From the UHGV virus genome UHGV-0128346: 30,017 nt of DNA. One strand, 5' to 3'. The notes under the pieces were generated by a model that saw only the letters and a program-made list of their open reading frames with translations, ran no database searches and was not told the origin of the DNA. Numbering within the stretch: the first letter of the stretch is position 1; the number at the start of each line of letters is the position of its first letter. The position numbers and the translations under genes were made by a program. The DNA comes from a virus. Below, one piece after another: positions 11,227-29,967 of the stretch.

Positions 11227-11356
11227 ATCCCGCCCCAACAGACCTGTGCTACCGGAAAGAAAAAAGGCCATCAGCAAAACTCTGATGGCCTGAATCACCT
11301 TTACCAGTCATGTATGAAAAAATACGCACAACCAATTGACAATAATTATCATTTTC

Positions 11357-13725: not shown

Positions 13726-13840
13726 GTCTTTTTACCTTCATGGTTAACATGACATACCAATAACTCTTGTCTAAAAAGCCAGCAAGATAAAAAGTCAGTA
13801 TTCACGACCACCAGCGTGTTTACCGTACTGCACCAATGTT

Positions 13841-13870
13841 TAATTTATAAAAAAACCGCGAGAACGCGGT
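13841..13870 (-). terminator. Intrinsic terminator after the 176-aa cargo ORF
   Basis: ACCGCG-AGAA-CGCGGT hairpin followed by a U-rich tract on the minus strand. Confidence 0.6.
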
Positions 13871-13906
13871 AAGTATTGTTAAAAAAAAACAGTAATTTCA
13901 CTCAAC

Positions 13907-14437
13907 TTATTTAATACATTCTTTTGCTTGCGCATAATAAATTTTATGAGTATTAGCAAGCTTAACGAAGTTATACTTAACTGCCCCTAACAGGGTTCCA
14001 ACTCTTGTATGCCCTTCCATTAAATGAAGCCCTGTTGTATTACTTTTCAGCAAAGCTCGATCTATAAAAAATGGAGGTTCACACCATGTGCCAAAATTAC
14101 ACCAATGCGCTTTTATTTCATCATCCATAAATACATCGCCTTTACGGGTTGTGAAATCTTCAACGACCTCATGCAAAAAATCAGGGTAAGTAGCATTATC
14201 CCCGATAGTTAAAAAATTTTTAGTGGGAAGTTCAATCAATTTCCATTCGATTTGGTCAATATTAAGATCCCCATAAAGCTCCTGAAATCTGTCATAACCT
14301 GCCAATCCATAATAAATCTCCTGAATTACAGGAGTGGGGGCGGCGATAGAATATTGCTCACGAAGTATTCTTTCAGCCTCAGGAGCTTTAAATATGGGTC
14401 TTTCTGAGAAAATAGGCAAAAGATCTCGGTATAACAT
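13907..14437 (-). CDS. Hypothetical protein (176 aa), AT-rich cargo gene immediately downstream of PR'/tR'
   Basis: GGGGA ribosome-binding site 6 nt before the ATG; GC estimated by eye at ~36%, clearly below the surrounding phage DNA; flanked by intrinsic terminators; no signal peptide; no family recognised. Confidence 0.6.
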   Translation of the reverse strand: MLYRDLLPIFSERPIFKAPEAERILREQYSIAAPTPVIQEIYYGLAGYDRFQELYGDLNIDQIEWKLIELPTKNFLTIGDNATYPDFLHEVVEDFTTRKGDVFMDDEIKAHWCNFGTWCEPPFFIDRALLKSNTTGLHLMEGHTRVGTLLGAVKYNFVKLANTHKIYYAQAKECIK

Positions 14438-14450
14438 CCATATCCCCGTG

Positions 14451-14486
14451 TAAGAAAAAATAATTTAACCCGCTCGGCGGCGGGTT
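14451..14486 (-). terminator. tR'-like intrinsic terminator downstream of Q and the PR'-like promoter
   Basis: AACCCGC-TCGGCG-GCGGGTT hairpin followed by AAATTATTTTTT on the minus strand, ~110 nt after the Q stop. Confidence 0.6.
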
Positions 14487-14531
14487 CTTGGACTCATCAA
14501 CGGTAGACATACAAAGCCCATCGTTGGGAAA

Positions 14532-14560
14532 ATCTTATCCATATTTTTTGAGAAATGCAA
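14532..14560 (-). promoter_or_regulatory. Candidate late promoter PR' (TTGCAT-N17-TAAGAT, minus strand), presumed Q-utilisation region
   Basis: Sigma70-like hexamers with 17-nt spacing, 30-60 nt downstream of the Q stop and upstream of the tR'-like terminator; the lambda-style arrangement. Confidence 0.4.
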
Positions 14561-14591
14561 GCATCATGTCGCCATCTTCGGTGAAAATCAC

Positions 14592-15344
14592 TTATCTCGT
14601 CACCTTTCTCAATTGTGCTTCAGCGAATGCTTCTTCCTGCCAGCACTTTGTTACCAGTTTATCAATGACGTCTGCATATCCTTTGTACCACTGATAATCA
14701 GTCAGGTCTGGTACCAGCTTCTGGACATGACGTCGTGCCAGTGTGGTCGGTAAACGACTAAACCGGTTTCCATTGCAACGCCCACAAATCTTATAAACAG
14801 GCGCGCCATGAAGCCGGGTTCTTTTTTCATCCAGGACAATGCCTTTACCCTTACACCCTCTGCAAGCCGTGCTGACTTCTCCCTTACCATGGCAATGCTG
14901 ACATAATTCCTTCACCCACTCTTCCTTGATAACAGATTCCCCGCTTCTGGAGTGTTTCACCACTTCGCGCAATACACTATGAAATCCAGTACCAGCACAA
15001 TGCTCACAGCGAGCCTTACTTGCCGCAGACCTGGAATAATCAGCAAAGGCAAAACTCACAAGGTAAGGGATGATCTGTAACCGGGTTTCTTCACTCAATT
15101 TGTTCAATGTCGGGTTATCCATTGCCATCGCGTAATTGAGCAGACCTTCAATCGCAAACTGAGGATCCTGAACACCAACTTTTGCCAGGAATAAGGCAAA
15201 CCCAAGCGGTGCTTTCGACTGCACCATCCCCTGCGCAGCCATCACATCCGTAATCGTTAAACCACCTGAGCCTGTCGCCGGTGCGTCATCGCTCAATTTT
15301 GGAGATTTTGGGGAGTAATATTTTGGTAAGGCTTCAAGGTTCAT
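14592..15344 (-). CDS. Q: Late-gene antiterminator Q (lambda Q family, 250 aa)
   Basis: Matches recalled lambda Q: YYSPKSPKLSDDAPATGSGGLTITDVMAAQGM, FAFADYSRSAASKARCEHCAGTG, C-terminal ...VTR; Cys-rich zinc-binding motifs; same length as the Qin prophage homologue. Confidence 0.85.
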   Translation of the reverse strand: MNLEALPKYYSPKSPKLSDDAPATGSGGLTITDVMAAQGMVQSKAPLGFALFLAKVGVQDPQFAIEGLLNYAMAMDNPTLNKLSEETRLQIIPYLVSFAFADYSRSAASKARCEHCAGTGFHSVLREVVKHSRSGESVIKEEWVKELCQHCHGKGEVSTACRGCKGKGIVLDEKRTRLHGAPVYKICGRCNGNRFSRLPTTLARRHVQKLVPDLTDYQWYKGYADVIDKLVTKCWQEEAFAEAQLRKVTR

Positions 15345-15357
15345 GCTCGTTCTCCAC

Positions 15358-16353
15358 TTACGCCAGTACGCCTATTGCCAGCGCATGATCGATAAAACGA
15401 AATATCAGCTCCAGCTGGGAGCCATACATCTCTTCAAATGCCACGGTATCCGCATGCAGCTCGTCGTGATGCTTTCTGCACAAAGGCAACACAAAGAGGT
15501 CATGCGCTTTTGTACCCATTCCACCCTGACCATGGCCTATCAGGTGGTGGGGATCATCAGCAGGCTTTCCACAACATGCACACGGCTGTGTCTTAACCCA
15601 GCGCGTGTACTTTTCATTAACCCAGCGGCGACGTTTTGGGCGTAACATAAAAGACTCCGGCGACTCTGGCTCCACTTTCAGCGCCAGCACCTTTTTCGCT
15701 TTATCCTGGATAATGCTGGTGGCAGGAACCGAAGGAACAAGGTCACTCTCCCGGGTGACAGACGGCACAACCGGCTTCGGTAATCTCAGTGCCTTACGGG
15801 CTGCACTTTCCGGTAAGGCATCCGCCAGGTCATTACGAACCAGCCACCAGCACAGTTCCGGCATTGTCACTACGTGACTGTCATCAAAACCGAGATCCCG
15901 ACGCACGACAGATAACACCCAGTGGGCACAGTTATCCGTTGCCATTGATTCCAGCCGTTCCGTGAACTGATCACGCAACTGGTTATCGCAGTGCCAACAC
16001 AGACGAATTGCGCCCGGCGCGTGTCGCATTGTGGTCATGTTCTCGCTGTGCCAGTCGGAATGAGGCCACTGACAGCCCTTTTCACGAAGTAACCAGCTTT
16101 CAAGACATTCCACGCCACCAGCACGACGGATCACTGCCTCATTGCGGAACACGGCCCGAACGGCAGGATCATCCGCCAGCGGTTGTGATGCCGCCGGAAC
16201 GGCACCACTGGCGAAAGATGAATAACGTTCCGGCTCAGGCTCCAGCAGGACACGCCCCTGCATAAACAGGGGCATCAGCTCTGAACCTGGCCTGAACAAT
16301 ACGATCCCCATACGCGGGGCAATTTCAGGGGTCAGTAGTGCTCTCACGGTCAC
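15358..16353 (-). CDS. DUF968-like protein with C-terminal HNH-like Cys/His motif (YdfU-like)
   Basis: 331 aa; C-terminal CACCGKPADDPHHLIGHGQGG...CRKHHDELH; upstream of Q, as ydfU is in Qin. Confidence 0.6.
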   Translation of the reverse strand: MTVRALLTPEIAPRMGIVLFRPGSELMPLFMQGRVLLEPEPERYSSFASGAVPAASQPLADDPAVRAVFRNEAVIRRAGGVECLESWLLREKGCQWPHSDWHSENMTTMRHAPGAIRLCWHCDNQLRDQFTERLESMATDNCAHWVLSVVRRDLGFDDSHVVTMPELCWWLVRNDLADALPESAARKALRLPKPVVPSVTRESDLVPSVPATSIIQDKAKKVLALKVEPESPESFMLRPKRRRWVNEKYTRWVKTQPCACCGKPADDPHHLIGHGQGGMGTKAHDLFVLPLCRKHHDELHADTVAFEEMYGSQLELIFRFIDHALAIGVLA

Positions 16354-16354
16354 C

Positions 16355-17152
16355 TCAATGAACGGTATCGAGCAGCTTTAACAGCTCAGGGAATCGGGAT
16401 TCGAAGAAATGCGGCTGCGTCTCGCGCGGATTTGCAGGACTGGTGATGTTCTTGCCGAACATGCAGCCTTTCGCCGTCAGCGACCAGAATTTTTTGATGT
16501 TGTTAATCGCGGTACGGCTGTATCGTTCGCGTTGTTCAACGATCCCCAGCTTCACCATCTGGTGATATGCCTGATTAGCCGTCAGGCGGATACCATACTG
16601 TTTCAGCAGTGCACTCAGTGACAGTGTCGGGCGACTTGAGCCATCGTGTGCATCAGCAGGAGCATCAATGGCATAGCGCGGTGCCAGATTCGGTAAGCCA
16701 ACAGCCTCCTGGAGTTTCTGACAGGCACCAAGCACAGATGAGTTAGACAGGTTTAACTCCCGACGCATAAAGTCCAGCAGAATCACACCAGCCTGCATCT
16801 TGTCAGCAGCCTGTCCGGATAATTTTTCCGGTGCGCTGGTTACCATGTCGAAAGTACGGATCACCTTAAGATGGAATGACGGGCTTATCCACATTGCATA
16901 GGCATACACCAGTTCTTTGCAGACATACGTCCCCTGGTTATTTCCGCCACGAATAACGTTAACTGGCTCTATATTGACCGAGTTGCAAATCTGCAACTCG
17001 CTTATTAAACGTTCAGTTTGCTCATTGCGGAGCCAGAATGCAGGCTTATGCTTATCCAGAGAACCGGCAGCCCTGTGAAGATCGTTCAGGCTGTAACGAC
17101 CATAAGCATCACGACGAACTTCAATACCATCAATAACCATCAGATTATTCAT
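16355..17152 (-). CDS. KilA-N domain protein
   Basis: N-terminal VIDGIEVRRDAYGRYSLNDLHRAAG...KPAFWLRNEQTERLI is a typical KilA-N signature. Confidence 0.7.
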   Translation of the reverse strand: MNNLMVIDGIEVRRDAYGRYSLNDLHRAAGSLDKHKPAFWLRNEQTERLISELQICNSVNIEPVNVIRGGNNQGTYVCKELVYAYAMWISPSFHLKVIRTFDMVTSAPEKLSGQAADKMQAGVILLDFMRRELNLSNSSVLGACQKLQEAVGLPNLAPRYAIDAPADAHDGSSRPTLSLSALLKQYGIRLTANQAYHQMVKLGIVEQRERYSRTAINNIKKFWSLTAKGCMFGKNITSPANPRETQPHFFESRFPELLKLLDTVH

Positions 17153-17171
17153 ACTTCGTTTCTCCTCTTAA

Positions 17172-17561
17172 TCAGGCGGCTGCACCCGCCGTTTTCTCGT
17201 ACTTACTGATAGTGATCTCGACCTTCCCTTCCGGGATAACCGGTCCCCACTCCACCAGCATTCTTTTCACCTGACTGTCGTCTTCCCACACACCCGCGTG
17301 GGTCAGGGCGTCAAACAGCGCCTTGTTATAGTTGTCCAGATCGCGGATCCGGTTATCCGGAGGAAACAACACGATCTCCACTGAAGCAGGTGCCGACGTT
17401 GGTTTCGGCAGACGACGTAACTGCTCAACTATTGCTGCGCACGCCGCGCTCTGGAATTTTCGCCCCGCCGCGCTTATCAGGCTCTTACCAGCAAACGCCC
17501 CTTTGTTGGGGTGTCGCCAGTACGTGTTCACGCTGGGCGGAAAAGGCAGGATCAGCTTCAT
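17172..17561 (-). CDS. rusA: RusA Holliday-junction resolvase
   Basis: 129 aa with PFPPSVNTYWRH...DLDNYNKALFDALTHAGVWEDDSQV, matching RusA catalytic-region motifs. Confidence 0.9.
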   Translation of the reverse strand: MKLILPFPPSVNTYWRHPNKGAFAGKSLISAAGRKFQSAACAAIVEQLRRLPKPTSAPASVEIVLFPPDNRIRDLDNYNKALFDALTHAGVWEDDSQVKRMLVEWGPVIPEGKVEITISKYEKTAGAAA

Positions 17562-17884
17562 ACTTTCAGGCCCCTCTCATGTAACCAGTGGGCTGCACGC
17601 AGCCTTGCGTTTTCCTCACCGGCAAGCAGTGAGCGGATAATCCCGACCGCCTCGCTGTCGTCGTCCTTCACCGCGGTATGAAGCGTGATGCCCCGGGCCA
17701 CGCCACGCTTTATCGTGATGACGCCTTTTTTCTCCAGTGCGCGAAGATGCTCCACCGCTGCATTCACTGAACGGTATCCCAGCATGGTTGCCACCTCCTG
17801 ATTGGTTGGCGGGAAGCCACGTTCTTTCTGATAAGAAATCAGCATATCCAGCACCTGCTGCTGGCATTGAGTTAACGTCGTCAT
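17558..17884 (-). CDS. LexA N-terminal DNA-binding-domain homologue lacking the S24 peptidase domain
   Basis: First ~70 aa (LTQCQQQVLDMLISYQKERGFPPTNQEVATMLGYRSVNAAVEHLRALEKKGVITIKRGVARGITL) match the recalled E. coli LexA N-terminus motif for motif; total length 108 aa. Confidence 0.7.
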   Translation of the reverse strand: MTTLTQCQQQVLDMLISYQKERGFPPTNQEVATMLGYRSVNAAVEHLRALEKKGVITIKRGVARGITLHTAVKDDDSEAVGIIRSLLAGEENARLRAAHWLHERGLKV

Positions 17885-18534
17885 GCCGCCATCTCCCTGA
17901 CCAGTTTTTCCGCCTGCTGGCGAACCTGCACCAGAAAGGCTTCACCACATGCCTCAAGTTCATCGCGCCCGATGTAGCTGATTGCCGGTCCCTTCCAGGT
18001 CTTGTCGAAAACAGCAATAGCACCAGCGAAGAAAGCGCCTGTCGGCACCTGCTTCTCATCCTTCGGGATAAACCAGGCAGGCAGTTCAAAACCAATACGC
18101 CCGCGAATAAAAGCAATATGGTCCGCATCTTCCGGCCACCACACTTCGCTGGTGGCAGCTTTGATCAGGAAAACATAGCGCCCGCCCTTATCACGCATGG
18201 CACTGGCATGTTTCATGATGTAACGCATGCCGGTGATGTATTGCCCCTCATGCTGACTGGCGCGGCTGTATGGGGGATTACCAAAGGCAGCACCTTTAAG
18301 CTCCGCAAGACGTTCTGACCAGTCATGCGCCAGCGCGTTATCTTCCGCCGTGTAATACGCGGCACATTTGGCGTTATCACCGTCAGTAAACAGATCCAGA
18401 ACAAACGGGCCAAACAGGGTGTTAATTCCCCAGAAAATGTTGTCCGGCGTGCGCCACTGATCGCCCACTTCCTTCAGTTCATGGGCTGGTTTGTTCCGCA
18501 GTTCCGCCAGCGCCTGGCAATATTTATTACTCAT
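17881..18534 (-). CDS. Phage Dam-family N6-adenine DNA methyltransferase
   Basis: FGNPPYS catalytic motif; likely start at Met12, where the upstream stop and this ATG overlap (TAATG). Confidence 0.8.
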   Translation of the reverse strand: MSNKYCQALAELRNKPAHELKEVGDQWRTPDNIFWGINTLFGPFVLDLFTDGDNAKCAAYYTAEDNALAHDWSERLAELKGAAFGNPPYSRASQHEGQYITGMRYIMKHASAMRDKGGRYVFLIKAATSEVWWPEDADHIAFIRGRIGFELPAWFIPKDEKQVPTGAFFAGAIAVFDKTWKGPAISYIGRDELEACGEAFLVQVRQQAEKLVREMAA

Positions 18535-19028
18535 TAAGCCCCCACGTAATTCCCTGAGAGATACCACTCTTCACCTGATGCAGCCCGCTTACTGCTTTTC
18601 CGTAAACACCGTTCACGACGCGCCAGAAAATTGTTTCGTTCTGGCTGGGAGTGGCTTTCACGGAATGCCGCCATCCACACCGTTGCAGCACGACGGTATA
18701 AGCCCCTCGACTCCAGTTCTTCAGCCTGGCGGGTCAGGCACAAAATCACCCGGGGGTCGTTAGTGCCGACATAGAACTTGCGCACAGGTCTGGTTTCACG
18801 AACTGGTTGTGGTTCCGGCTCCTGCGCTCTCTCAGTCAGGCGCGAGAAATGTCTGCGTGTATCTCCTTCACAACGGTGAGCCACACGCCCACTCTGACGT
18901 AACTTGCTTGCTGACTGCAGAACGCGCTGCCGTGAGTAACCTGCAAAAGCATCCGCAATGTCTCCGGAAGTACACCCCGGATGGGCTTCAATGAATTTCT
19001 GAACTTCATTCAAAAGACTCATGATCAC
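18534..19028 (-). CDS. PerC-family transcriptional regulator-like protein (Pch-like)
   Basis: C-terminal RGLYRRAATVWMAAF...ERNNFLARRERC fits the PerC motif (G-x-[WY]-RRAA-x-x-W); start overlaps the stop of the replication gene (ATGA). Confidence 0.45.
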   Translation of the reverse strand: MIMSLLNEVQKFIEAHPGCTSGDIADAFAGYSRQRVLQSASKLRQSGRVAHRCEGDTRRHFSRLTERAQEPEPQPVRETRPVRKFYVGTNDPRVILCLTRQAEELESRGLYRRAATVWMAAFRESHSQPERNNFLARRERCLRKSSKRAASGEEWYLSGNYVGA

Positions 19029-20017
19029 CCCCTGAATCCTGCCGGGATCTGGCTGTAGTCCACGTTGTCGTAACTGGATTTGAAGTACGGATCTTCACGT
19101 TTTTCTGTGTATGTGCTGACGGACGGCGATAAGCGCAGGGAAAGCTCATCCCATTTTTCCCGCAGCTTCGACGGGCTGAGCACGTTACGGCACCAGAACG
19201 GATCGCGGCTGACGCGGCTGTACATCTCGCAGATTTGTTTGTGAGTACGACCATCCTGCACACACATCAGGCGAATTTCGTTTGCCCAGGCTGTCCAGTT
19301 CGGTTCTTTGGGACGAACCACCTCGCCGTCACATTCGGCAGCCTGCTCGTACAGGGCGATGATTTTTTTCCAGAGCCACTGTGCGCAGGTCAAATCATCC
19401 TGCGTTCCCCACTGGCGCTTTTTAGGGCTGAATACAACCGCATCAGGATGGCGAGTTAAAAACTCCTGTTCAGCCGTTTGCGTGTCCGGTTGCGAAGCGT
19501 CCGGACGAGAAGAGGTTTTATTCTCTGTAGTAATCTCTGTTGTATTCTCTGTAAGATCATTGGGCCATTTTGACCCGATGACAGCGTGTCGTTTTGAACC
19601 AATGGATCGTGTCATTTTGCGCCCATCCATCAGGTCACTTTGACCCGATGGAGAAGTGCATTTTGACCTGATGGATTCGTTCACTTTGACCTCTTCTAAA
19701 AGCTCACTTTCATAGTTGATCGTGTAGAAGTTGGTCATGTCACGCTTCGATTTATTGAGTTGCTCGCGACGCAAAACCCCAAGTGATTTCAGGCTTGCAA
19801 ATGTGCGTTTCAGAGTGGACTCTGACCAGAACGGAAACTGCTCCAGCCACTGTTCTGTCGTGTTATAAACCCAGCGAATTCCGCCATGCTCAGTGCCTGA
19901 ATTCGTTTCATTCAGCCAGTAATGAAGCTGCTGCAACACAATTGCCTCATTCAGACCAATACGGCATGCAAGATCACGATTTATCACAATGGGCTGGGAT
20001 GTCATTAACAGGCTCAT
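19025..20017 (-). CDS. Replication initiator (lambda O-like: N-terminal DNA-binding part, iterons within the gene)
   Basis: 330 aa; at least five ~16-bp iterons (consensus CAYTTTGACCYGATGG) lie inside the coding sequence next to an AT-rich stretch, the arrangement of ori-lambda inside O. Confidence 0.7.
   Translation of the reverse strand: MSLLMTSQPIVINRDLACRIGLNEAIVLQQLHYWLNETNSGTEHGGIRWVYNTTEQWLEQFPFWSESTLKRTFASLKSLGVLRREQLNKSKRDMTNFYTINYESELLEEVKVNESIRSKCTSPSGQSDLMDGRKMTRSIGSKRHAVIGSKWPNDLTENTTEITTENKTSSRPDASQPDTQTAEQEFLTRHPDAVVFSPKKRQWGTQDDLTCAQWLWKKIIALYEQAAECDGEVVRPKEPNWTAWANEIRLMCVQDGRTHKQICEMYSRVSRDPFWCRNVLSPSKLREKWDELSLRLSPSVSTYTEKREDPYFKSSYDNVDYSQIPAGFRG
19563..19715. repeat. Origin iterons (5-6 copies of CAYTTTGACCYGATGG at ~22-bp spacing)
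   Basis: Direct repeats read in the sequence: cattttgacccgatg, cactttgacccgatgg, cattttgacctgatgg, cactttgacctc, plus weaker copies. Confidence 0.65.
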
Positions 20018-20238
20018 GCCGCACCTCCGAGATGCTTCATGTTTTTTCCGGAGCGAAAGGCTATAAGCGGCATACTGACGCGGTAATTACGACCCAGCGG
20101 TTCACAAATCACCTTCTGACATTCACGGTCCACCAGGCTAACACGTAGAACATGCCCTGCAGGCGTGGTGTACCACTGACCGGGGCGAGGACAACGGAAA
20201 GTCTGATTGGTAAATCGTTTGAAAATATTCCGGATCAT
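20014..20238 (-). CDS. Hypothetical protein (74 aa)
   Basis: Both ends overlap neighbouring genes by 4 nt (ATGA), suggesting translational coupling in the early-right operon. Confidence 0.45.
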   Translation of the reverse strand: MIRNIFKRFTNQTFRCPRPGQWYTTPAGHVLRVSLVDRECQKVICEPLGRNYRVSMPLIAFRSGKNMKHLGGAA

Positions 20239-20780
20239 TTGCGCCCCCTTACCTCTGAAGGGTTCAGCGACAAATTTATGAGACTGGCCAGTAGCGCCGC
20301 GTCGTTGATGCGGTCATACAGACTTACAGCCAGCGGGGATTCGGCTTTTGCCAACATGGGATAAAGCTGCTGCAGCCAGACCTGATGAATTGATGAAATG
20401 TAGGAATAGAGAACGCTGGCGTTATGTGCAACGTCGCTCAGTACAGAGGGATTTGAAAGCTGTTTCTCCATCTGGTTAAAGGCATTGATGTATGCCTCTT
20501 TGAACCGGGCAGCACGTTTCCCCGTGAAGCCCATGGCAAGAAACGCAAAACCGTCGCGGGTGATTTGGTAACAAGGGAGTTTGCGGCCTGTGCAATCGGT
20601 GTAATCACTGGGCTGAAAATTCAGCTCAGTGAATTCAACAGAGCACTCAAGCGTCTGGATTTTTTGAATAACGTTTTTGTGCTGCTTGCAGAAATATTCG
20701 GCAACGGCCAAAGAAGAGGTAACAGCCTTCCCATGGATAACATCAATTTTAGGGTGAGTTTGGGTAGGGGTGGTTGCCAT
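20235..20780 (-). CDS. Phage regulatory protein Rha
   Basis: From the internal Met, VTSSLAVAEYFCKQHKNVIQKI...YQITRDGFAFLAMGFTGKRAARFKEAYINAF matches the Rha N-terminal domain; GAGGA ribosome-binding site 9 nt upstream. Confidence 0.7.
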   Translation of the reverse strand: MATTPTQTHPKIDVIHGKAVTSSLAVAEYFCKQHKNVIQKIQTLECSVEFTELNFQPSDYTDCTGRKLPCYQITRDGFAFLAMGFTGKRAARFKEAYINAFNQMEKQLSNPSVLSDVAHNASVLYSYISSIHQVWLQQLYPMLAKAESPLAVSLYDRINDAALLASLINLSLNPSEVRGRK

Positions 20781-20942
20781 AGTGACATCCTCATGTGCGA
20801 ATTTTGAAAACTCACCACATGGGACGCCAATCACAGAGGTGGTGAGACGTACAGGGTTGGCGTAACCGGTCGCACATGACCCCGGCGCATCTTTCGATGC
20901 CCCTGCACGCCCCACCATAATTTGGATGTGAGGAAACGTGCG

Positions 20943-20966
20943 CAAAAAAACCGCTGAAGCGCGGTT
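20943..20966 (-). terminator. tR1-like intrinsic terminator in the early-right operon
   Basis: ACCGC-TGAAGC-GCGGT hairpin followed by U7 on the minus strand. Confidence 0.5.
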
Positions 20967-21376
20967 ATGCGCATGTGCGAATTTCAGGACGCCAATCCCG
21001 GCACCCGCTTTATAAGGTGCCTGAACAGTGTAACGTCCCGGAATTGCAGAATCAATATGCTGGTGGTCCTTCACACTCAACAAAATCACGCCTGAATTTC
21101 CACAAAGGACTAAAGCACTCATGCGGGTAGTCTTTGCGAAGATAGATAACGCGCTGTGTTTCTGGCTCCCAACGAATAACATGGACATAAAGCCCTCTTC
21201 CGTCACGAAACCAGCGGTTAAGTTCCTGCACAACTCGCCCCCCACAGTCAGGTAAAGTTCTCTGTGGTTACTTACAGCCAGGTGATTTGGTAATCTGCAT
21301 TCATGCCGTAACAACAGGTGTTCAGCGACGCTGACCACCAGCTGTTGCGACAAACGGTTATTTGCCGTTAAACTAT

Positions 21377-21946
21377 TCATGCGTTAGTTTCTCCACAACC
21401 AGAAGCAATCGACGCCACGACGCCCGGAGCTGCACACTCGCGGGCGTTACTCTTTTCTGGAGCGCAGAAGATTTTGTAGACCAGTGCTGCATGCTCCTGG
21501 AGCTTCGAAATTGAAAGATACAGTTCGTCGTTAATTGCTGTCTTCTCATGCGGTTCCACTACACCGTCTTCGATTGCTGAACGAATCTGTCTGGAATAAC
21601 TGCCGATCTGTTCAATGACTTCCAGCAGGCGCTGGTTTATATCGGCGTTCTCTACTGCCTCAATTTCAGGAAGCGATACGAACACCCCACCAGCAGACTG
21701 TGCGACAGCATCCGCAATGTAGTGAGTGCCAGCCGCACGCTGTAAAACCATTGCCCATCCCAGCGGGAAAATCTGATCGCCATCTGCACGAAGGCGGTTG
21801 AATAATGCGTTCTCTGTTACATCCAGCCACTCAGCAGCTTCAGCGTAACCCCCCGGCAACGCCGCGATAGTTTTTCTGACAGCTTTCACGTACCACTCAG
21901 GCTGTTTTTCTACTTTCCAGTGATGCTTACCCACGGTTAGCCTCAT
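21377..21946 (-). CDS. CII/YdaT-like regulatory protein (189 aa)
   Basis: Immediately follows the Cro/YdaS-like gene, as ydaT follows ydaS in prophage Rac; weak resemblance to 186-type CII; family not confirmed. Confidence 0.4.
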   Translation of the reverse strand: MRLTVGKHHWKVEKQPEWYVKAVRKTIAALPGGYAEAAEWLDVTENALFNRLRADGDQIFPLGWAMVLQRAAGTHYIADAVAQSAGGVFVSLPEIEAVENADINQRLLEVIEQIGSYSRQIRSAIEDGVVEPHEKTAINDELYLSISKLQEHAALVYKIFCAPEKSNARECAAPGVVASIASGCGETNA

Positions 21947-22268: not shown

Positions 22269-22943
22269 ATGAAAACAGTCCATGACATCCGGCGGTCTAA
22301 CGCCAGAAAACTGAGAGATGGTGTTGGCGGGAATTCTTCCTTTGCCACCATGATTGATCGCGAGCCAACCCAGACCAGCAGGTTTATGGGAGATGGTGCT
22401 ACTAAAAATATCGGTGACAGCATGGCACGGCACATCGAAAAATGTTTCGACCTGCCTGTCGGATGGCTTGATCAAGAACACCAGACAACAAACATCACAA
22501 AAAAACCTGATGTTTCAATTACTAACAAACAAATAACGTTAGTCCCTGTCATATCATGGGTACAGGCCGGAGCATGGAAAGAAGTTGGCTATTCTGAGGT
22601 TGATTTGAGCACAGCAGAAACTTATCCCTGCCCTGTACCCTGTGGCGAAATGACTTATATCTTGCGGGTGATTGGTGATTCAATGATTGATGAGTACCGC
22701 CCGGGAGACATGATTTTTGTTGATCCCGAAGTCCCTGCCTGCCACGGTGACGACGTTATTGCATTGATGCACGATACAGGCGAAACCACCTTCAAGCGAT
22801 TGATAGAAGATGGAACACAGCGTTATCTCAAAGCATTAAACCCAAACTGGCCTGAGCCTTACATTAAGATTAACGGTAATTGCTCTATAATTGGTACAGT
22901 AATTTTCTCAGGAAAACCAAGAAGATACAAAATAAAGGCCTAA
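22269..22943 (+). CDS. cI: cI-like prophage repressor (HTH plus S24 LexA-like autopeptidase)
   Basis: C-terminal half matches the S24 fold of recalled P22 C2 and lambda cI (ISWVQAG, GDSM, PGDMIFVDPE, TFKRL, LNPNWP, INGNCSIIG). Confidence 0.85.
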   Translation: MKTVHDIRRSNARKLRDGVGGNSSFATMIDREPTQTSRFMGDGATKNIGDSMARHIEKCFDLPVGWLDQEHQTTNITKKPDVSITNKQITLVPVISWVQAGAWKEVGYSEVDLSTAETYPCPVPCGEMTYILRVIGDSMIDEYRPGDMIFVDPEVPACHGDDVIALMHDTGETTFKRLIEDGTQRYLKALNPNWPEPYIKINGNCSIIGTVIFSGKPRRYKIKA

Positions 22944-22981: not shown

Positions 22982-23015
22982 TTGACAATGTACCATTGAG
23001 ATACATAATGTATCT
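22982..23015 (+). promoter_or_regulatory. PL-like promoter (TTGACA-N16-CATAAT) with overlapping 17-bp palindromic operator AGATACAT-A-ATGTATCT
   Basis: Consensus-like sigma70 hexamers; perfect palindrome across the -10 element; position corresponds to lambda PL/OL. Confidence 0.6.
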
Positions 23016-24339: not shown

Positions 24340-24702
24340 ATGGCTAGCGAACGCAGTACTGATGTGCAGGCATTTATCGGGGAGCTGGACGGCGGCGTAT
24401 TTGAAACCAAAATCGGCGCAGTTCTCAGTGAGGTCGCTTCCGGTGTGATGAACACGAAAACCAAAGGGAAGGTCTCACTCAATCTGGAAATCGAACCGTT
24501 TGATGAGAACCGTGTGAAAATCAAACACAAACTCTCATATGTTCGCCCAACTAACCGCGGGAAAATTTCCGAAGAAGACACCACCGAAACGCCGATGTAT
24601 GTCAATCGCGGTGGTCGCCTGACTATTCTGCAGGAAGACCAGGGACAATTACTGACTCTTGCCGGTGAACCTGACGGAAAACTCCGCGCAGCAGGTCGTT
24701 AA
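24340..24702 (+). CDS. Hypothetical protein (120 aa)
   Basis: ATG with GAGGAG ribosome-binding site; first gene after the tL-like terminator and just upstream of the yfdQ-like gene. Confidence 0.55.
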   Translation: MASERSTDVQAFIGELDGGVFETKIGAVLSEVASGVMNTKTKGKVSLNLEIEPFDENRVKIKHKLSYVRPTNRGKISEEDTTETPMYVNRGGRLTILQEDQGQLLTLAGEPDGKLRAAGR

Positions 24703-24767: not shown

Positions 24768-25592
24768 ATGTCTCAGAACTTAGACGCAACCGCAATTAAT
24801 CAAATCCATGCCCTTATTTCTGCTCAGGGTGTTAATGAAATTATCAGTAAGATTGGTGCCGATGCTGTGGCATTGCCTGAGAATTTCCGCATTCATGATC
24901 TGGAAAAATTTAATTTAAATCGCTTCCGTTTCCGTGGTGCACTTTCCACTGCCAGCATCGATGATTTTACCCGTTATTCTAAAGATCTTGCAGATGAAGG
25001 CACCCGCTGCTTTATCGATGCCGATAATATGCGTGCCGTCAGTGTGCTTAACCTGGGTACTATTGATGAGCCAGGTCACGCAGATAACACTGCCACTCTC
25101 AAACTGAAAAAGACAGCACCGTTCTCTGCTCTGTTGTCTGTTAACGGCGAGCGTAACTCCCAGAAGTCACTGGCAGAATGGATCGAAGACTGGGCCGACT
25201 ACCTTGTGGGCTTTGATGCTAATGGTGACGCCATTCAAGCAACAAAAGCGGCTGCGGCAGTCCGTAAAATCACGATTGAAGCAAACCAGACCGCTGATTT
25301 TGAAGATAATGACTTCAGCGGCAAACGCTCCCTGATGGAGTCTGTCGAAGCGAAAACCAAAGATATTATGCCAGTGGCATTTGAATTTAAATGCGTTCCG
25401 TTTGAAGGTCTGAAAGAACGTCCATTTAAATTACGCCTCAGCATTATCACTGGCGATCGTCCTGTACTGGTTCTGCGCATTATTCAGCTGGAAGCAGTGC
25501 AGGAAGAAATGGCTAACGAATTTCGTGATCTGCTTGTTGAGAAATTCAAGGACAGCAAAGTAGAAACCTTTATTGGTACTTTCACCGCCTGA
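24768..25592 (+). CDS. yfdQ: YfdQ-like protein (DUF2303)
   Basis: 274 aa, the length of E. coli K-12 CPS-53 YfdQ, followed by a YfdR-like HD protein; called from gene order and size as recalled. Confidence 0.65.
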
Positions 25593-25720: not shown

Positions 25721-26257
25721 ATGTCATTTATTAAAACTTTTTCCGGGAAGCATTTTTATTATGACAAGATAAATAAAGACGACATCGTGATTAACGATAT
25801 CGCGGTTTCCCTTTCAAATATCTGTCGCTTTGCAGGACATCTTTCACACTTCTACAGTGTCGCCCAGCATGCGGTGCTTTGCAGCCAGCTGGTGCCGCAG
25901 GAATTTGCTTTTGAAGCGTTAATGCATGATGCAACAGAAGCGTATTGCCAGGATATTCCCGCTCCACTGAAACGCCTTCTTCCTGACTATAAACGGATGG
26001 AAGAAAAAATAGACGCCGTAATCCGTGAGAAATACGGGTTACCCCCGGTTATGAGCACGCCTGTGAAATATGCCGATCTCATCATGCTGGCAACCGAACG
26101 CCGCGATCTCGGGCTTGATGATGGCTCTTTCTGGCCAGTACTGGAAGGTATCCCGGCAACAGAAATGTTCAAAGTTATTCCACTGGCTCCGAGCCATGCC
26201 TACGGGATGTTTATGGAGCGCTTTAACGAGTTATCGGAGTTACGCACATGCGCATGA
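25721..26257 (+). CDS. yfdR: HD-domain phosphohydrolase (YfdR-like 5'-deoxynucleotidase)
   Basis: 178 aa from the internal ATG with GGAGAA ribosome-binding site; HD motif ...HFYSVAQHAV...LMHDATEAY. Confidence 0.75.
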   Translation: MSFIKTFSGKHFYYDKINKDDIVINDIAVSLSNICRFAGHLSHFYSVAQHAVLCSQLVPQEFAFEALMHDATEAYCQDIPAPLKRLLPDYKRMEEKIDAVIREKYGLPPVMSTPVKYADLIMLATERRDLGLDDGSFWPVLEGIPATEMFKVIPLAPSHAYGMFMERFNELSELRTCA

Positions 26258-26610
26258 ATGTTTTCGAAATGGAAGGGTTTCTTCGCGGGAAATGTGTACC
26301 ACGAGATCTGAAAGTGAATGAAACAAATGCTGAGTACCTGGTACGTAAATTCGATGCGCTTGAAGCTAAATGTGCGGCACTGGAAAACAAAATAATACCA
26401 GTGTCAGCTGAACTGCCGCCAGCAAATGAAAGTGTTCTGTTATTTGATGCTAACGGAGAAGGCTGGCTAATTGGCTGGCGTTCTCTCTGGTACACCTGGG
26501 GACAAAAAGAAACCGGAGAATGGCAGTGGACATTTCAGGTCGGGGACCTTGAAAACGTCAATATCACTCACTGGGCAGTAATGCCGAAAGCACCGGAGAA
26601 TAAAAAATGA
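26248..26610 (+). CDS. YfdS-like protein (120 aa)
   Basis: Overlaps the previous stop; size and position match yfdS of CPS-53. Confidence 0.5.
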   Translation: MRMNVFEMEGFLRGKCVPRDLKVNETNAEYLVRKFDALEAKCAALENKIIPVSAELPPANESVLLFDANGEGWLIGWRSLWYTWGQKETGEWQWTFQVGDLENVNITHWAVMPKAPENKK

Positions 26611-26810
26611 GCGTGATAAAAACTCATACAGGAATTGTTATCACCCGAGACGGTCCGCAGGTAAAAAAACTGCACCAGACAAAGCGGATGTGGGTCGTCG
26701 GAAAAAACGAGTTTTACCACAAAGAAACCGGACGCCGCCACTTTGCAGAAAATACTCGCCGCCGACTGCTGATCGATACCATCAAGCCTATCGAGGTGAA
26801 GCATGTTTAA
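26607..26810 (+). CDS. Hypothetical protein (67 aa)
   Basis: Start overlaps the upstream stop (ATGA coupling); basic small protein. Confidence 0.45.
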   Translation: MSVIKTHTGIVITRDGPQVKKLHQTKRMWVVGKNEFYHKETGRRHFAENTRRRLLIDTIKPIEVKHV

Positions 26811-27051
26811 ACAGAACGAAAAATCTATCGCTCAAATTGCTGAGTATATCCCGCGTGCGTGCCGGGGTATGCAGTTGCAGGAAGCCAAAGCGCGCCTGGA
26901 GAAAAAAATTGCGCTCTATATTGATGACGGCTGTGATGCCGCCGTTCTTAACGCGGCGTTCGCACCAGCTCTTAACTGTCATACGCGAGAGTCTTTTTTT
27001 TCGTGCATCGCAGCGCAGATCCGTAAAGGAGGCACCAGTGAGCGAGATTGA
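26803..27051 (+). CDS. Hypothetical protein (82 aa)
   Basis: ATG overlaps the end of the previous ORF; competes with the long frame 26690-27823. Confidence 0.4.
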   Translation: MFKQNEKSIAQIAEYIPRACRGMQLQEAKARLEKKIALYIDDGCDAAVLNAAFAPALNCHTRESFFSCIAAQIRKGGTSERD

Positions 27052-27823
27052 CTATCAGGCGTTGCGTAAGGCAGCACAAAACTATCAATCGACTCTGGCG
27101 TGGTATCAGGAAAAGCCAGACAGTCCAAACGCTGAACAGGATTGTGATGCAGCTTTAGCGGCGTTTAAGCGAGAAATCCGTCATCGGGAAGTGGACATTA
27201 TCGCCGGGCTGTTGGATGAGCTGGACGAAAAACAGCAATACATCAAACTCCGCGACCAGGAGAACGAGGATATTGCGCTAACGGTAGGGAAGCTGAGAGT
27301 TGAGCTTGAGGAGACAAAATCAAAACTCAACGAGCAGCGTGTGTATTACGAGGGAGTAATCGCGGATGGAAGTAAGCGCATAGCAGAGTTGCAGACAAAA
27401 TCTGCACCAGATTCGTTTGGCATCATCGGTGAAAATATTCGAACACAGGACAATCATATAACGTCAGACCCTATGTTTTGTGTGTATCAAAAGCGCGAAA
27501 TCGTTGTTGATGCTGATTATGACTATGACCGGATTGTCTGGGTTGATGAAGATGGCAATGAAGCCAATAAACTCCAAAGTCGTCGTCTCGAACTACTTCA
27601 TGAAAACTTTCGGGAGCCACCAGAAAAATGGCGGCGCGTTGCTGTGAAAGATATTGATGAATTCGTTACCTGCTGTTTTACCGAACAGGGTTGTAAAGAC
27701 TACCTGGCAGCCAATGGTCACAATCTTCGCTTGCCATTTATATATGTAAAAAGCGGTTTCAGGAACGCTGAATATATCGGCATAAGAAACTGGCTTGCTG
27801 GCATTCGCATCAAAGGAGAGTGA
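27038..27823 (+). CDS. Ead/Ea22-like coiled-coil protein (261 aa, GTG start inferred)
   Basis: AAAGGAGG ribosome-binding site 7 nt before an in-frame GTG; central coiled-coil; C-terminal region resembles Ea22-family early proteins. Confidence 0.45.
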   Translation: MSEIDYQALRKAAQNYQSTLAWYQEKPDSPNAEQDCDAALAAFKREIRHREVDIIAGLLDELDEKQQYIKLRDQENEDIALTVGKLRVELEETKSKLNEQRVYYEGVIADGSKRIAELQTKSAPDSFGIIGENIRTQDNHITSDPMFCVYQKREIVVDADYDYDRIVWVDEDGNEANKLQSRRLELLHENFREPPEKWRRVAVKDIDEFVTCCFTEQGCKDYLAANGHNLRLPFIYVKSGFRNAEYIGIRNWLAGIRIKGE

Positions 27824-27824
27824 T

Positions 27825-28112
27825 ATGGCAACTTTGCAGGAATTAATCGACCTGACGCCAGAACAGGAAAAAGCGTGGAATCGCCTTGTGAAGGCTGTAA
27901 AGGATTTCAGGGCAGCCGGAGGAAAGTTTTATAGCGTCCTGGACACGCTGAGCGCATACAACGGCGAGCACGTTGCCAGCATTGATAACGATAAGGGCTA
28001 CCACACTGCAAGCGTCTATATGCCTAGCATTGATGCGCCAGGGCTAACCAGTTGGGCTGATGATTGGCACGGCATCACGCTGAAAGATGGCGTTGAAGTG
28101 GATGAGGACTAA
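27825..28112 (+). CDS. Hypothetical protein (95 aa)
   Basis: ATG with AAAGGAGAG ribosome-binding site immediately after the previous stop. Confidence 0.5.
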   Translation: MATLQELIDLTPEQEKAWNRLVKAVKDFRAAGGKFYSVLDTLSAYNGEHVASIDNDKGYHTASVYMPSIDAPGLTSWADDWHGITLKDGVEVDED

Positions 28113-28115
28113 CAC

Positions 28116-28856
28116 ATGACTACTTTTACCGACAAAGAACTGATTAAAGAAATCAGAGAGCGAATCGGCAGCCTGGACGTGCGAGACAATATTGAGCGCC
28201 TGGCTTATGAAATCGCACTGGCATCGCTGGCAGCAGTATCGGATGAACGAGCAGCCTATGAATTATTTATGGAGAAGCGTTTCGGGGAATCTGTAGATCG
28301 CCGTAGGGCAAAAAATGGCGATAGAGAATACATGGCATGGGATATGGCGCTTGGCTGGATTATCTGGTGTCACCGCGCCGCCATGCTTCAGGGTAGCCAA
28401 CCTGTAAGCCAAACTTACAACTTGCCAGAATTAATCGAAGGCATGGAAGTTTCCATTGATGTAAGCACTTGTGATGCTGATTTAGGTAATCGCTATTTCG
28501 GCACCGTCACCGAGGCGTTAGAACTTGATACAGCCAAGAATGGTTACATCCTCCTGGTTCAGGACGCAGAGCCAAACTTCGATGTAAATGGCAACTCTCC
28601 GGGAACTCCGGATAGTTGGGTTATGGTGCCGAAGAGACTAACAGCAGAGAACGGCGCTAAGGGGGTGCTATCCGGTGAATTTTCAGAAACTACGTTTATA
28701 AGCTGCCTGGAATGCTTTGGCGATGATGATTGCGATACCTGTGACGGGAGCGGACGTATTGAAATTAAAGTGCCAGTCACGTGGTCGACCATAAAATCTA
28801 TCTGGGATAAAGGTATCGAGTATTTTGCAGCAAAACCATCACAAGAGGTGAAGTGA
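28116..28856 (+). CDS. Hypothetical protein (246 aa) with C-terminal Cys-rich zinc-ribbon-like motif
   Basis: C-terminal CLECFGDDDCDTCDGSG; no family recognised. Confidence 0.55.
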   Translation: MTTFTDKELIKEIRERIGSLDVRDNIERLAYEIALASLAAVSDERAAYELFMEKRFGESVDRRRAKNGDREYMAWDMALGWIIWCHRAAMLQGSQPVSQTYNLPELIEGMEVSIDVSTCDADLGNRYFGTVTEALELDTAKNGYILLVQDAEPNFDVNGNSPGTPDSWVMVPKRLTAENGAKGVLSGEFSETTFISCLECFGDDDCDTCDGSGRIEIKVPVTWSTIKSIWDKGIEYFAAKPSQEVK

Positions 28857-29428
28857 TGAACAACTTAATGATCGACCTTGAGACGATGGGGAAAAATAAG
28901 GATGCACCGATCGTTTCCATTGGCGCGGTGTTCTTCACTCCAGAAACCGGAGACATCGGACAAGAATTCTATACGGTTGTTAGCCTGGAAAGTGCTATGG
29001 GGCAAGGAGCTACACCTGACGGCGATACCATCCTGTGGTGGTTGAAACAAAGCCCTGAGGCACGAGCTGCAATCTGTATTGATGATACTTTGTCGATCAG
29101 CGATGCTCTCTCAGAACTAAATCATTTCATTAACCGGCACGCAGCCAATACGAAATATTTAAAAGTCTGGGGTAACGGGGCCACCTTCGACAACGTAATT
29201 TTACGTGGAGCTTATGAGCGAGCAGGACAAATCTGCCCGTGGGCATACTGGAATGACCACGATGTACGCACGATCGTTACGCTTGGGCGTTCCATCGGAT
29301 TCGACCCCAAAATAGACATGCCTTTCGATGGCGAACGGCACAACGCCCTGGCCGATGCCCGTCATCAGGCAAAATATGTTTCCGCTATCTGGCAGAAATT
29401 AATTCCTGCCACCAGCACAGAATTATGA
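28853..29428 (+). CDS. DEDDh-type 3'-5' exonuclease (DnaQ-like)
   Basis: Exo motifs IDLETMG (D-x-E), WGNGATFD and HNALADA (H-x4-D). Confidence 0.8.
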   Translation: MMNNLMIDLETMGKNKDAPIVSIGAVFFTPETGDIGQEFYTVVSLESAMGQGATPDGDTILWWLKQSPEARAAICIDDTLSISDALSELNHFINRHAANTKYLKVWGNGATFDNVILRGAYERAGQICPWAYWNDHDVRTIVTLGRSIGFDPKIDMPFDGERHNALADARHQAKYVSAIWQKLIPATSTEL

Positions 29429-29464
29429 TTTTCCCGGGTGCAGCCGGTTTTGATGGAGAAAATT

Positions 29465-29746
29465 ATGAACACCTTGTTTTTACTGATGGCTGAATTCAAT
29501 ACCCCTAACATTGAACTCTCAGCAGTTAGCCAAAAGTACTTTGGCATGAGTCCAGCCACGGCAGAAGCAAAAGCAAACGCTTGTAAGTTGCCCGTTCCAA
29601 CATATCGCATCGGCACATCACAAAAAGCAAAACGTTGCATCAATATTCAGGATCTTGCGGAATACATAGACAAAAGACGAGAAGAAGGACGTATCGAGTG
29701 GGAACAGGTCAGAACAGGCAAACAGAAGGGCAAAGAACATCACTAA
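29465..29746 (+). CDS. PrtN-family / excisionase-like DNA-binding protein
   Basis: ORF track begins at a GTG; an ATG with GGAG ribosome-binding site lies at 29465; KLPVPTYRIGTSQKAKRCINIQDLAEYID resembles PrtN/Xis-like winged helix; last gene of the early-left operon. Confidence 0.45.
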   Translation: MNTLFLLMAEFNTPNIELSAVSQKYFGMSPATAEAKANACKLPVPTYRIGTSQKAKRCINIQDLAEYIDKRREEGRIEWEQVRTGKQKGKEHH

Positions 29747-29750
29747 AGAA

Positions 29751-29776
29751 AAAACCCGCCTAAAGGCGGGTTTTCA
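29751..29776. terminator. Bidirectional intrinsic terminator (AACCCGCC-TAAA-GGCGGGTT)
   Basis: 8-bp stem flanked by an A-run upstream and a T-run downstream on the plus strand; serves the xis-like gene and the convergent small gene. Confidence 0.55.
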
Positions 29777-29793
29777 AAAAGCACCAGCTATGA

Positions 29794-29967
29794 TCATGCT
29801 ACTTTGCGACGACGAAGCTTACCCTGCTGCTCTTTACCAGAGACAGTAGCGTGAGTGAACGCATTAGGAGCAGCCTTCATCAGAACTTCAACAGCAGCCC
29901 CCATACCTGCGAATGCTTTCATTGTGTCGAACTTAACCTGTGGCTTGGTTGCTTTTTGATCTTCCAT
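29794..29967 (-). CDS. Hypothetical small protein (57 aa), convergent to the early-left operon
   Basis: Below the ORF-track size cutoff; translated by hand as MEDQKATKPQVKFDTMKAFAGMGAAVEVLMKAAPNAFTHATVSGKEQQGKLRRRKVA; GGAG ribosome-binding site 8 nt upstream; own terminator. Confidence 0.3.
   Translation of the reverse strand: MEDQKATKPQVKFDTMKAFAGMGAAVEVLMKAAPNAFTHATVSGKEQQGKLRRRKVA

Follow-up and report, generated by a model that had tools for sequence, protein, structure and literature searches.

A probable early-left accessory segment, ending in a predicted DEDDh exonuclease gene, in a lambdoid Escherichia coli prophage of the Rec-less class

What does a lambdoid phage carry in the distal part of its early-left operon when no recombinase gene can be recognized there, and do the genes that are present take the place of the missing recombination functions? 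The question is raised by virus genome UHGV-0128346, a 30,017 bp sequence (called the window here, meaning the whole stretch that was analysed), in which four genes at positions 27038–29428 encode an Ea22-family protein, proteins of 95 and 246 amino acids (AAs), and a predicted exonuclease. A previous reading of these genes from the sequence alone (the sequence-only reading) had placed them where phage λ has exo, bet and gam. We conclude that the block is very probably a non-essential accessory segment in the distal part of the early-left (pL) operon in a lambdoid prophage of E. coli, and that this prophage belongs to the class of phages like LLS, ST64B, SfV and mEp460 that have no recombination (Rec) module.

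The four open reading frames (ORFs) recognized in the sequence-only reading are indeed tightly packed genes, all on the + strand. The Ea22-family gene (27038–27823, 261 AAs) has a GTG start and an AAGGAGG ribosome-binding site. In the ORF list the 95 AA gene occupies 27825–28112 and the 246 AA gene 28116–28856, and the last gene, whose product belongs to the DexA/Rv2179c family of DEDDh exonucleases, runs to 29428 from either an ATG at 28856 (190 AAs) or a GTG at 28853 (191 AAs); the ATG overlaps the TGA stop codon of the 246 AA gene. From yfdR through the exonuclease gene the intergenic spacing is −14 to +3 nt, that is, neighbouring genes overlap or are separated by gaps of at most 3 nt, and because of this spacing the block fits a single, translationally coupled operon. 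The exact sequence of the 246 AA protein is found on 257 contigs, and members of the 95 AA family are 63–99% identical across Escherichia, Salmonella, Klebsiella, Enterobacter, Citrobacter and Cronobacter, so these are real genes and not chance ORFs. An Rfam search found no non-coding RNA within the block.

The block matches the λ exo–xis region and not the exo-bet-gam position to which it had been assigned, since in λ the ea22 gene lies between exo and xis. It is thus in its framing of position that the sequence-only reading was mistaken, while its two other main observations, the lack of a Rec module and the presence of a DnaQ-like exonuclease, stand. By homology the block appears to be the counterpart of the λ exo–xis and P22 ea regions. 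The Shiga toxin (Stx) phage P27 has a λ-type exo gene as well as the 95 AA gene (99% identical), an Ea22 protein whose C-terminal domain is that of the window protein, and a protein composed of the leader discussed below plus DUF551. Phage HK620 has an Abc2-SSB-Sak4 module followed by an Ead/Ea22 gene, a small ORF and a DUF551 protein gene, and P22 has Abc2-Abc1-Erf-Arf followed by its ea genes, eaA through eaD. Since genes of the same types coexist with Rec modules in P27, HK620 and P22, the genes of the block do not stand in for recombination functions. Like the ea regions of λ, P27, P22 and HK620, the block lies directly upstream of xis and consists of early, non-essential mosaic genes. In those four phages the ea region adjoins the Rec module, whereas in the window it adjoins the genes yfdP, yfdQ and yfdR, and, unlike λ, the window has no orf60a, orf61, orf63, orf73 or ea8.5.

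The earlier statement that no RecT, Erf or Bet recombinase is recognizable is borne out by Pfam, PHROGs and NCBIfam scans and by tblastn within the window. No match to RecT, Erf, Rad52/Sak, Sak4, Gam, Abc2, SSB, NinB or NinG came from Pfam searches with the ORFs tested in the early-left, immunity, replication and nin regions, a PHROGs scan of ten early-left ORFs gave no recombinase, and ten reference Rec proteins (λ Exo, Bet and Gam, P22 Erf, Abc1 and Abc2, Rac RecE and RecT, and HK620 Sak4 and SSB) had no tblastn match in the window. The only canonical recombination-related protein found there is a RusA Holliday-junction resolvase encoded in the nin region (17172–17561, − strand; PF05866, E = 6e-15), and the slot of the Rec module holds yfdP-yfdQ-yfdR instead. 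The absence of a Rec module is an already published phenomenon. Zheng, Casjens, Davidson, Amundsen and Smith (Genome Res 2025; PMC12315714) defined a Rec-less, Chi-rich lambdoid class; 68 of the 314 enterobacterial lambdoid phages in that study have no Rec module, and in almost all of the 68, Chi sites in the correct orientation are strongly enriched. The same paper cites Bobay et al. 2013 as having made the Rec-less observation earlier. Growth of the type phage, LLS, is improved by host RecBCD (PMC12315714). The prophage described here is a further member of this described class.

The window contains 12 Chi sites where 1.07 would be expected, and none of 100 shuffled sequences reached 12. Nine are in the active and three in the inactive orientation, as calibrated on LLS (20 and 3, respectively). 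With the strands pooled Chi is the commonest octamer in the window; it was also reported as the top octamer of LLS and P1 (PMC12315714). One of the active sites, 5'-GCTGGTGG-3', is on the − strand at 29409–29416, 12 nt from the 3' end of the exonuclease gene, and a Chi site is present at the equivalent position in LLS gene 34 (locus L004, 28771–28778), though the two exonucleases are only 82% identical. The eight other active sites, also on the − strand, are at 9893, 13496, 13808, 15844, 16115, 17252, 21335 and 21687, and the three + strand sites are at 15715, 18148 and 21059; together these eleven form a cluster (9893–21694) in the part of the window that holds the lysis, nin and replication genes. 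The LLS functional type is described by at least eight active and at most six inactive Chi sites, a lambdoid organisation, a Rec-less early-left operon and growth that host RecBCD enhances. The window has nine and three such sites, its organisation is lambdoid and its early-left operon is, at the sequence level, Rec-less. We also compared Chi content in the 10.5 kb upstream of related exonuclease genes. Eleven loci from 11 other species that have yfdPQR and no Rec gene contain 0.77 Chi/kb, with 74 of 89 sites in the active orientation, and six loci in which the exonuclease abuts a Rec protein contain 0.16 Chi/kb. This difference reproduces, independently and on a small scale, the published association between Chi and the lack of a Rec module.

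The resemblance to LLS extends to gene order. The LLS early-left order is yfdP-yfdQ-yfdR, two small ORFs, the gene for the DnaQ-like exonuclease gp34, xis and int, and its backbone is common to the window; mEp460 also shares the order yfdP-yfdQ-yfdR ... exonuclease-xis. In sequence searches the window, like LLS, has no annealing protein, Exo, SSB or anti-RecBCD gene. The nin region of each encodes a DUF968/HNH protein and DNA methylases, and both have strongly over-represented Chi sites that are mostly in the active orientation. The two differ in that six ORFs lie between yfdR and the exonuclease gene in the window (encoding the DUF551, 67 AA, 82 AA, Ea22, 95 AA and 246 AA proteins) and only two in LLS. 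They differ also in the type of xis, which is of the PrtN family in the window, and in the location of int, which in the matching prophage of E. coli strain K-15KW01 is at the opposite end, by dusA. Enhancement of growth by RecBCD has been shown for LLS, and for the prophage in the window the likeness is one of genes and Chi sites.

The sequence from 27000 to 29800 is present at 100% identity in four complete E. coli chromosomes, among them that of K-15KW01 (NZ_CP016358), and the closest named phages by DNA comparison are mEp460 and mEp460_4F5. At least 80% of the block is found in only five of 5426 complete E. coli genomes, and pieces of it are found in 3186. The whole window is intact in no complete E. 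coli genome (the top match has 83% coverage at 96% identity), and for this reason we regard the window as a mosaic of known pieces. We surveyed the backbone in 62 IMG/VR loci that encode an exonuclease at least 96% identical to that of the window and extend at least 8 kb upstream of it. A window-type xis was present in all 62, yfdR in 61, yfdQ in 57 and yfdP in 56, and no reference Rec protein was found in any; the modules of the 246 AA protein were present in 16–34, a window-type Ea22 in nine and the 95 AA gene in two. These counts indicate that the Ea22, 95 AA and 246 AA genes are probably optional cargo on a conserved backbone. The accessory genes belong to known mosaic families and are nearly identical to genes in named phages, so in this respect the block is a routine case.

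Several points weigh against this interpretation. The 62 loci all come from a single close lineage and do not count as independent samples, and the comparison of Chi density rests on 11 loci against six. The prophage's tail end is missing from the window, and a Rec gene could therefore lie outside it; known lambdoid Rec modules are situated in the early-left operon (PMC12315714), which is wholly within the window. The RecBCD/Chi model was tested on LLS (PMC12315714), another phage, and the functional roles given here to the four proteins of the block rest on homology. Finally, the 95 and 246 AA proteins may have a hidden fold relation to an annealing protein or an anti-defence protein.

The first protein of the block had been called an Ea22-like coiled-coil protein, and its match to the Pfam family Ead_Ea22 (PF13935, E = 2e-24, AAs 2–119) and homology to λ Ea22 agree with that assignment. 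AAs 1–120, which make up the N-terminus and the coiled coil, are 54% identical to λ Ea22. AAs 121–261 form an acidic P27- or "V3"-type C-terminal domain that is nearly identical to that of P27 Ea22. The λ-type C-terminal domain, whose fold has been solved by nuclear magnetic resonance, is absent, there being no similarity to λ past AA 120 save for the last eight AAs, and a Protein Data Bank (PDB) search with the protein found nothing significant. Such mosaic variants of Ea22, with a common N-terminus and coiled coil and differing acidic C-terminal domains, have been described (PMC10834534), and deletions of ea22 in λ and Stx phages indicate that the gene favours lysogeny (PMC7093339). We note that the final eight AAs, AGIRIKGE (encoded at 27800–27823), are identical in the λ, P27 and window proteins despite their differing C-terminal domains; this end of the gene looks like a conserved recombination joint at a gene boundary.

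The 95 AA protein is acidic (pI 4.5, net charge −9) and is 99% identical to gp07 of Stx phage P27. It matches phrog_2821 (E = 7e-66), a PHROG of unknown function, and belongs to a family of 54 clusters whose named sources are nearly all Enterobacterales. It has no Pfam or NCBIfam family and none in PADLOC, which models defence and not anti-defence proteins, and a profile of it has no significant PDB match. That this protein and the 246 AA protein were uncharacterised, as the sequence-only reading had it, thus remains accurate; only PHROGs of unknown function and no Pfam, NCBIfam or PADLOC family could be assigned. A homologue of the 95 AA protein is encoded in an Enterobacter element that resembles an integrative and conjugative element (ICE), with integrase, DnaB, Hha and TraG genes (locus L031, 5001–5357). 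Another belongs to a Cronobacter prophage, in whose nin or late-early region it is flanked by a RuvC-like gene and the gene for a 411 AA DUF551 protein (locus L033, 5001–5300). The gene is mobile and not confined to lambdoid exo–xis regions.

The 246 AA protein is also strongly acidic (pI 4.5, net charge −17). The C-terminal Cys-rich, zinc-ribbon-like motif that had been noticed in it can be written as C197-x2-C200-x5-C206-x2-C209 followed by DGSG; its conservation among relatives is 90% or more, and in the module alignment it does not vary. From tblastn against phages, an alignment of relatives and a search of 1.84 billion representatives, the protein divides into a leader (AAs 1–40), a helical module (AAs 41–94), module A (AAs ~95–160), a GNSPxTPDxW linker, and module B (AAs ~165–246), the last being a single-unit CxxC-x5-CxxCxGxG zinc knuckle. 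HK022, SfV and P27 also have the leader, and certain "EaA" proteins of Salmonella phages have module A. Across 1770 clusters, with proteins 109–442 AAs long, modules A and B give matches independently of each other. Module B is highly conserved, the listed representatives of the 50% clusters being at least 70% identical in it. Among 104 relatives scanned, 22 have DUF551, 12 have Ead_Ea22 and eight have the dATP/dGTP pyrophosphohydrolase domain DUF550, and Lar, ASCH, DUF3850 and DUF5490 are found once each. P22 EaA consists of the leader, DUF550 and DUF551, and the P27 protein with leader and DUF551 shares AAs 1–40 and the linker (there GNSPxTPDSW) with the 246 AA protein. The leader and linker are common to the DUF551 proteins of P27, HK620 and mEp460; unlike these, the 246 AA protein ends in the zinc-knuckle module and not in DUF551. 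It is therefore a mosaic of freely shuffled modules, a member of the EaA/DUF551 class of proteins that are made up of a leader plus shuffled modules.

The 246 AA protein, whole or in fragments, has no Pfam match at E ≤ 10, and it has no NCBIfam, PADLOC or PDB match; a profile of module B finds nothing significant in the PDB. Below the significance threshold, module B has likenesses of the CxxCxGxG type to the DnaJ Cys-rich domain (PDB 1exk, E = 0.14), Anti-TRAP (E = 0.044) and GRXCR1/2_C (E = 0.0096). Three public annotations of this gene can be set aside. The name "molecular chaperone DnaJ", given by the Prokaryotic Genome Annotation Pipeline (PGAP), is unsuitable in that the protein has no J domain, no Pfam match, and one CxxC-x5-CxxCxGxG unit rather than four repeats. 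The GenBank name "DUF551 domain-containing" for an identical protein is not accompanied by a PF04448 match; it is the leader-sharing relatives that carry DUF551. PGAP also splits the gene into a pseudogene and a 165 AA gene (locus L002, 8117–8857, equivalent to 28116–28856 of the window), yet the ORF is continuous and is present at full length on the 257 contigs mentioned above. AlphaFold2 models of the 246 AA protein (mean predicted local distance difference test score, pLDDT, of 37 from a 31-sequence alignment) and of the 95 AA protein (pLDDT 52.7, 30 sequences) are both unusable, because the alignments are too shallow and the sequences in them too similar.

Compatible with our placement of the block in the ea region is the idea, raised in the sequence-only reading, that one or both of these proteins act against host defences or in host takeover, for instance as acidic mimics of DNA or as inhibitors of restriction or abortive infection. 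Both are strongly acidic, are encoded in the early operon, and occur sporadically among otherwise near-identical prophages. In addition, the 95 AA family is found in the ICE-like element and the phage nin region described above, and relatives of the modules of the 246 AA protein are fused to Lar, which alleviates restriction, and to a MazZ-like deoxynucleoside triphosphate pyrophosphohydrolase. However, neither protein is similar to any characterised protein, DNA mimicry has no supporting structural model, and Ea22 C-terminal domains, which are known for a developmental and not an anti-defence phenotype, are typically acidic as well (PMC10834534). We consider such a role plausible but, on balance, unlikely.

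The exonuclease had been described as DnaQ-like (DEDDh) from the sequence, and this is confirmed for the gene next to xis. The protein matches PF16473 with E = 7e-75 and 251 bits against a cut-off of 27, AAs 3–180 aligning with positions 1–177 of the 177-position profile; NCBIfam and PADLOC give only weak DEDDh matches. It is 29% identical to T4 DexA, matches PDB 8kel, and is 82% identical to LLS gp34, which is annotated as a "DnaQ-like exonuclease". In the numbering of the 190 AA form its DEDDh residues D7, E9, D112, H162 and D167 align with D7, E9, D119, H186 and D191 of DexA, whose extra loops it does not have. The gene at 28856–29428 is thus predicted to encode a DEDDh 3'–5' exonuclease.

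Relatives of this exonuclease occupy several contexts. Scanning one genome per species, we obtained 48 loci. Where the exonuclease is at least 62% identical to that of the window, it is mostly accompanied by yfdP-yfdQ-yfdR and by no Rec protein. In a group that is 53–62% identical, the gene directly follows Erf-SSB (locus L145, 8880–10552, a gammaproteobacterial metagenome-assembled genome, confirmed by Pfam) or Sak4-SSB (locus L143). In other members of this group the exonuclease domain forms the C-terminus of an 823 AA RecE-like protein whose gene is followed by xis and int (Escherichia ruysiae, locus L141, 8081–10552). A DnaQ-type nuclease is part of the Rec module of phage ε34 (PMC12315714), and the authors of that study do not count the LLS-type DnaQ-like nuclease as a Rec-module protein. 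Unlike the ε34-type, Erf-SSB-exonuclease and RecE-like fusion modules, the window has no annealing protein or SSB adjacent to its exonuclease and no RecE-like fusion. The family is recombination-associated in other lineages, and in the window its member looks like an orphan nuclease of the Rec-module type.

These contexts raise the alternative that the exonuclease, perhaps together with YfdP and YfdQ, is a non-canonical recombination system that replaces Red, in which YfdQ would be an unrecognised annealing or scaffold protein or the exonuclease would trim 3' overhangs for RecBCD loading. The contiguity with Erf-SSB and Sak4-SSB, the fusion to a RecE-like N-terminus, and the acceptance of contiguous DnaQ-type nucleases as members of Rec modules (PMC12315714) all speak for it. 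So do the linkage of the exonuclease with yfdPQR in 56–61 of the 62 close loci and in 11 loci of other species, the deposition of a YfdQ homologue as a 36-chain assembly (PDB 9o7m), and the retention of the intragenic Chi position in the exonuclease gene between LLS and this prophage. On the other hand, yfdP-yfdQ-yfdR is also present in phage ArgO145, which has a Rec module that is both full and separate, and for this reason Zheng et al. do not regard yfdP and yfdQ as recombination genes. They also report that where a DnaQ-type nuclease lies near int, the genome often contains a Rec module, and work cited in that paper indicates that 3'–5' exonucleases usually inhibit homologous recombination (PMC12315714). 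Six unrelated accessory genes separate yfdPQR from the exonuclease gene in the window, and searches of Pfam, PHROGs and the PDB found no sequence similarity to any annealing-protein family. The replacement of Red by such a system is therefore doubtful. Equally improbable in our estimation is the related proposal that the exonuclease is the single phage recombination function kept by Rec-less, Chi-rich lambdoid phages, as a trimmer for RecBCD loading or a partner of YfdP and YfdQ; if true, it would tie the four-gene backbone yfdP-yfdQ-yfdR ... exonuclease to a RecBCD/Chi strategy.

A last alternative starts from the E. coli protein EcD, which protects its host against T4 by cutting 5-hydroxymethylcytosine (5hmC) DNA, an ability attributed to loss of the tetramer-forming Asp of DexA (D90, Ala78 in EcD) (PMC12153337). 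The window exonuclease shares a family with T4 DexA and EcD (PMC12153337), is nearly the size of the latter (190 and 189 AAs), and is 39% identical to an EcD-like 189 AA protein from IMG/VR whose gene matches the published EcD primers except for one base in the reverse primer; its catalytic residues and W132 (DexA W152) are conserved. That it is a prophage-encoded defence of this HREX type, degrading 5hmC DNA of superinfecting T-even phages, is nevertheless very improbable, chiefly because the diagnostic Asp has not been lost (it is D83 here, where the EcD-like protein has Ala; S80 is at the position of DexA S87), but also in that the column of DexA D169, a residue needed to recognize 5hmC, appears to hold Ser or Arg, depending on the alignment, and no acidic residue, in a segment that aligns poorly, and the gene is in the pL operon, where it is expected to be repressed in a lysogen, with only a weak 9/12 promoter-like site before it.

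The early-left operon of which the block is very probably the distal part can be followed from its start. A consensus scan found a pL-like promoter (TTGACA-16-CATAAT, 11/12 matches) at 22982–23009 on the + strand, downstream of a terminator and of a cI-like repressor gene with a Peptidase_S24 domain (22269–22943). By analogy with the λ layout this promoter is the presumed start of an early-left transcript that reads through the block. The first of the yfd genes is a yfdP-family gene (24340–24702, + strand, 120 AAs), so named by PGAP on the identical K-15KW01 gene; its product is 62% identical to LLS gp39 and has no Pfam match. Next is yfdQ (DUF2303; 24768–25592, + strand, 274 AAs; PF10065, E = 2e-92); its product is 57% identical to LLS gp38 and matches the "YfdQ Protein" of PDB 9o7m with E = 1e-44. 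The 36 chains in this PDB entry imply a large homo-oligomer or filament; we found no paper that describes it. The third, yfdR, encodes an HD-domain 5'-deoxynucleotidase of 178 AAs from the PGAP start (25721–26257, + strand, the ORF opening at 25658), identified by phrog_318 (E = 6.5e-111), its PGAP name, and weak YfbR-like and HD Pfam matches. Three small overlapping ORFs follow on the + strand and encode a 120 AA DUF551 protein (26248–26610; E = 2.7e-4), a 67 AA basic protein (26607–26810) and an 82 AA protein (26803–27051). They are assigned to phrog_583, phrog_1226 and phrog_1344, PHROGs of unknown function, and all three genes are also present in mEp460.

The final gene of the operon, beyond the block, is the PrtN-family excisionase gene xis (29465–29746, + strand, 93 AAs from the PGAP start, with the ORF opening at 29438; PF11112, E = 4e-23; phrog_1300, "excisionase"), and a terminator scan found a bidirectional-looking terminator after it at 29750–29775. 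An internal promoter for the exonuclease and xis genes was considered and rejected; the sole candidate is the 9/12 site mentioned above, and shuffled sequence has more such sites than this region does. In K-15KW01 the prophage sits between zur and dusA, with xis at the zur end and the integrase gene at the opposite end by dusA, so that the whole prophage lies between int and xis. Between xis and zur that strain has a gene with a Panacea (antitoxin-like) domain and two small genes.

The rest of the window is typically lambdoid, with head and terminase genes, lysis genes, Q, a nin region (RusA, DUF968/HNH and KilA-N), two DNA methylases, replication genes, a CII-like regulator, and cro and cI. 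The two DNA methyltransferase genes, at 12320–13381 and 17881–18567 (− strand), include one of the N6/N4 type and one of the Dam type, and the DUF968/HNH protein, a homologue of which LLS encodes too, is at 15358–16353. Rfam identifies a C4 antisense RNA (75 bits) and the small RNA IsrK (62 bits) at 20835–21020 on the − strand, inside or just upstream of an Ash/Rha antirepressor-like gene (20235–21380), which suggests an antisense immunity element of the P1/P7 type in a lambdoid phage. It also identifies the small RNA STnc100 (114 bits) at 11720–11908 on the − strand, between the lysis genes and a DNA methylase gene. A 126 AA ORF at 8195–8575 (− strand), between the terminase and lysis regions, has a TonB C-terminal domain (E = 1e-12) and is an unusual, moron-like gene.

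Taken with the class to which this prophage belongs, these genes fit the following course of events. After infection or induction, transcription from the pL-like promoter at 22982–23009 would proceed through yfdP-yfdQ-yfdR, the three small ORFs and the four coupled genes of the block to the PrtN-type excisionase gene. The Ea22-family protein with its P27-type C-terminal domain would, by homology with the Ea22 proteins of λ and the Stx phages, bias development towards lysogeny, and we infer that the 95 and 246 AA proteins modulate host physiology or defence and not DNA recombination. For the recombination needed in replication and packaging the phage would most likely rely on host RecA and on host RecBCD, which Chi recruits, both working at its many correctly oriented Chi sites, as in the model proposed for LLS (PMC12315714), with the phage RusA protein resolving junctions, and the exonuclease is best read as an orphan nuclease of the Rec-module type with no annealing partner.

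The 95 and 246 AA proteins are abundant in prophages of pathogenic E. coli, including Stx phages, and are misnamed in public annotation. The contexts in which the exonuclease occurs, as an orphan by xis, contiguous with Erf-SSB or Sak4-SSB, and as a RecE-like fusion, make it a tractable candidate for study of the role of 3'–5' exonucleases in phage recombination, and it could show whether Rec-less phages keep one helper of RecBCD.

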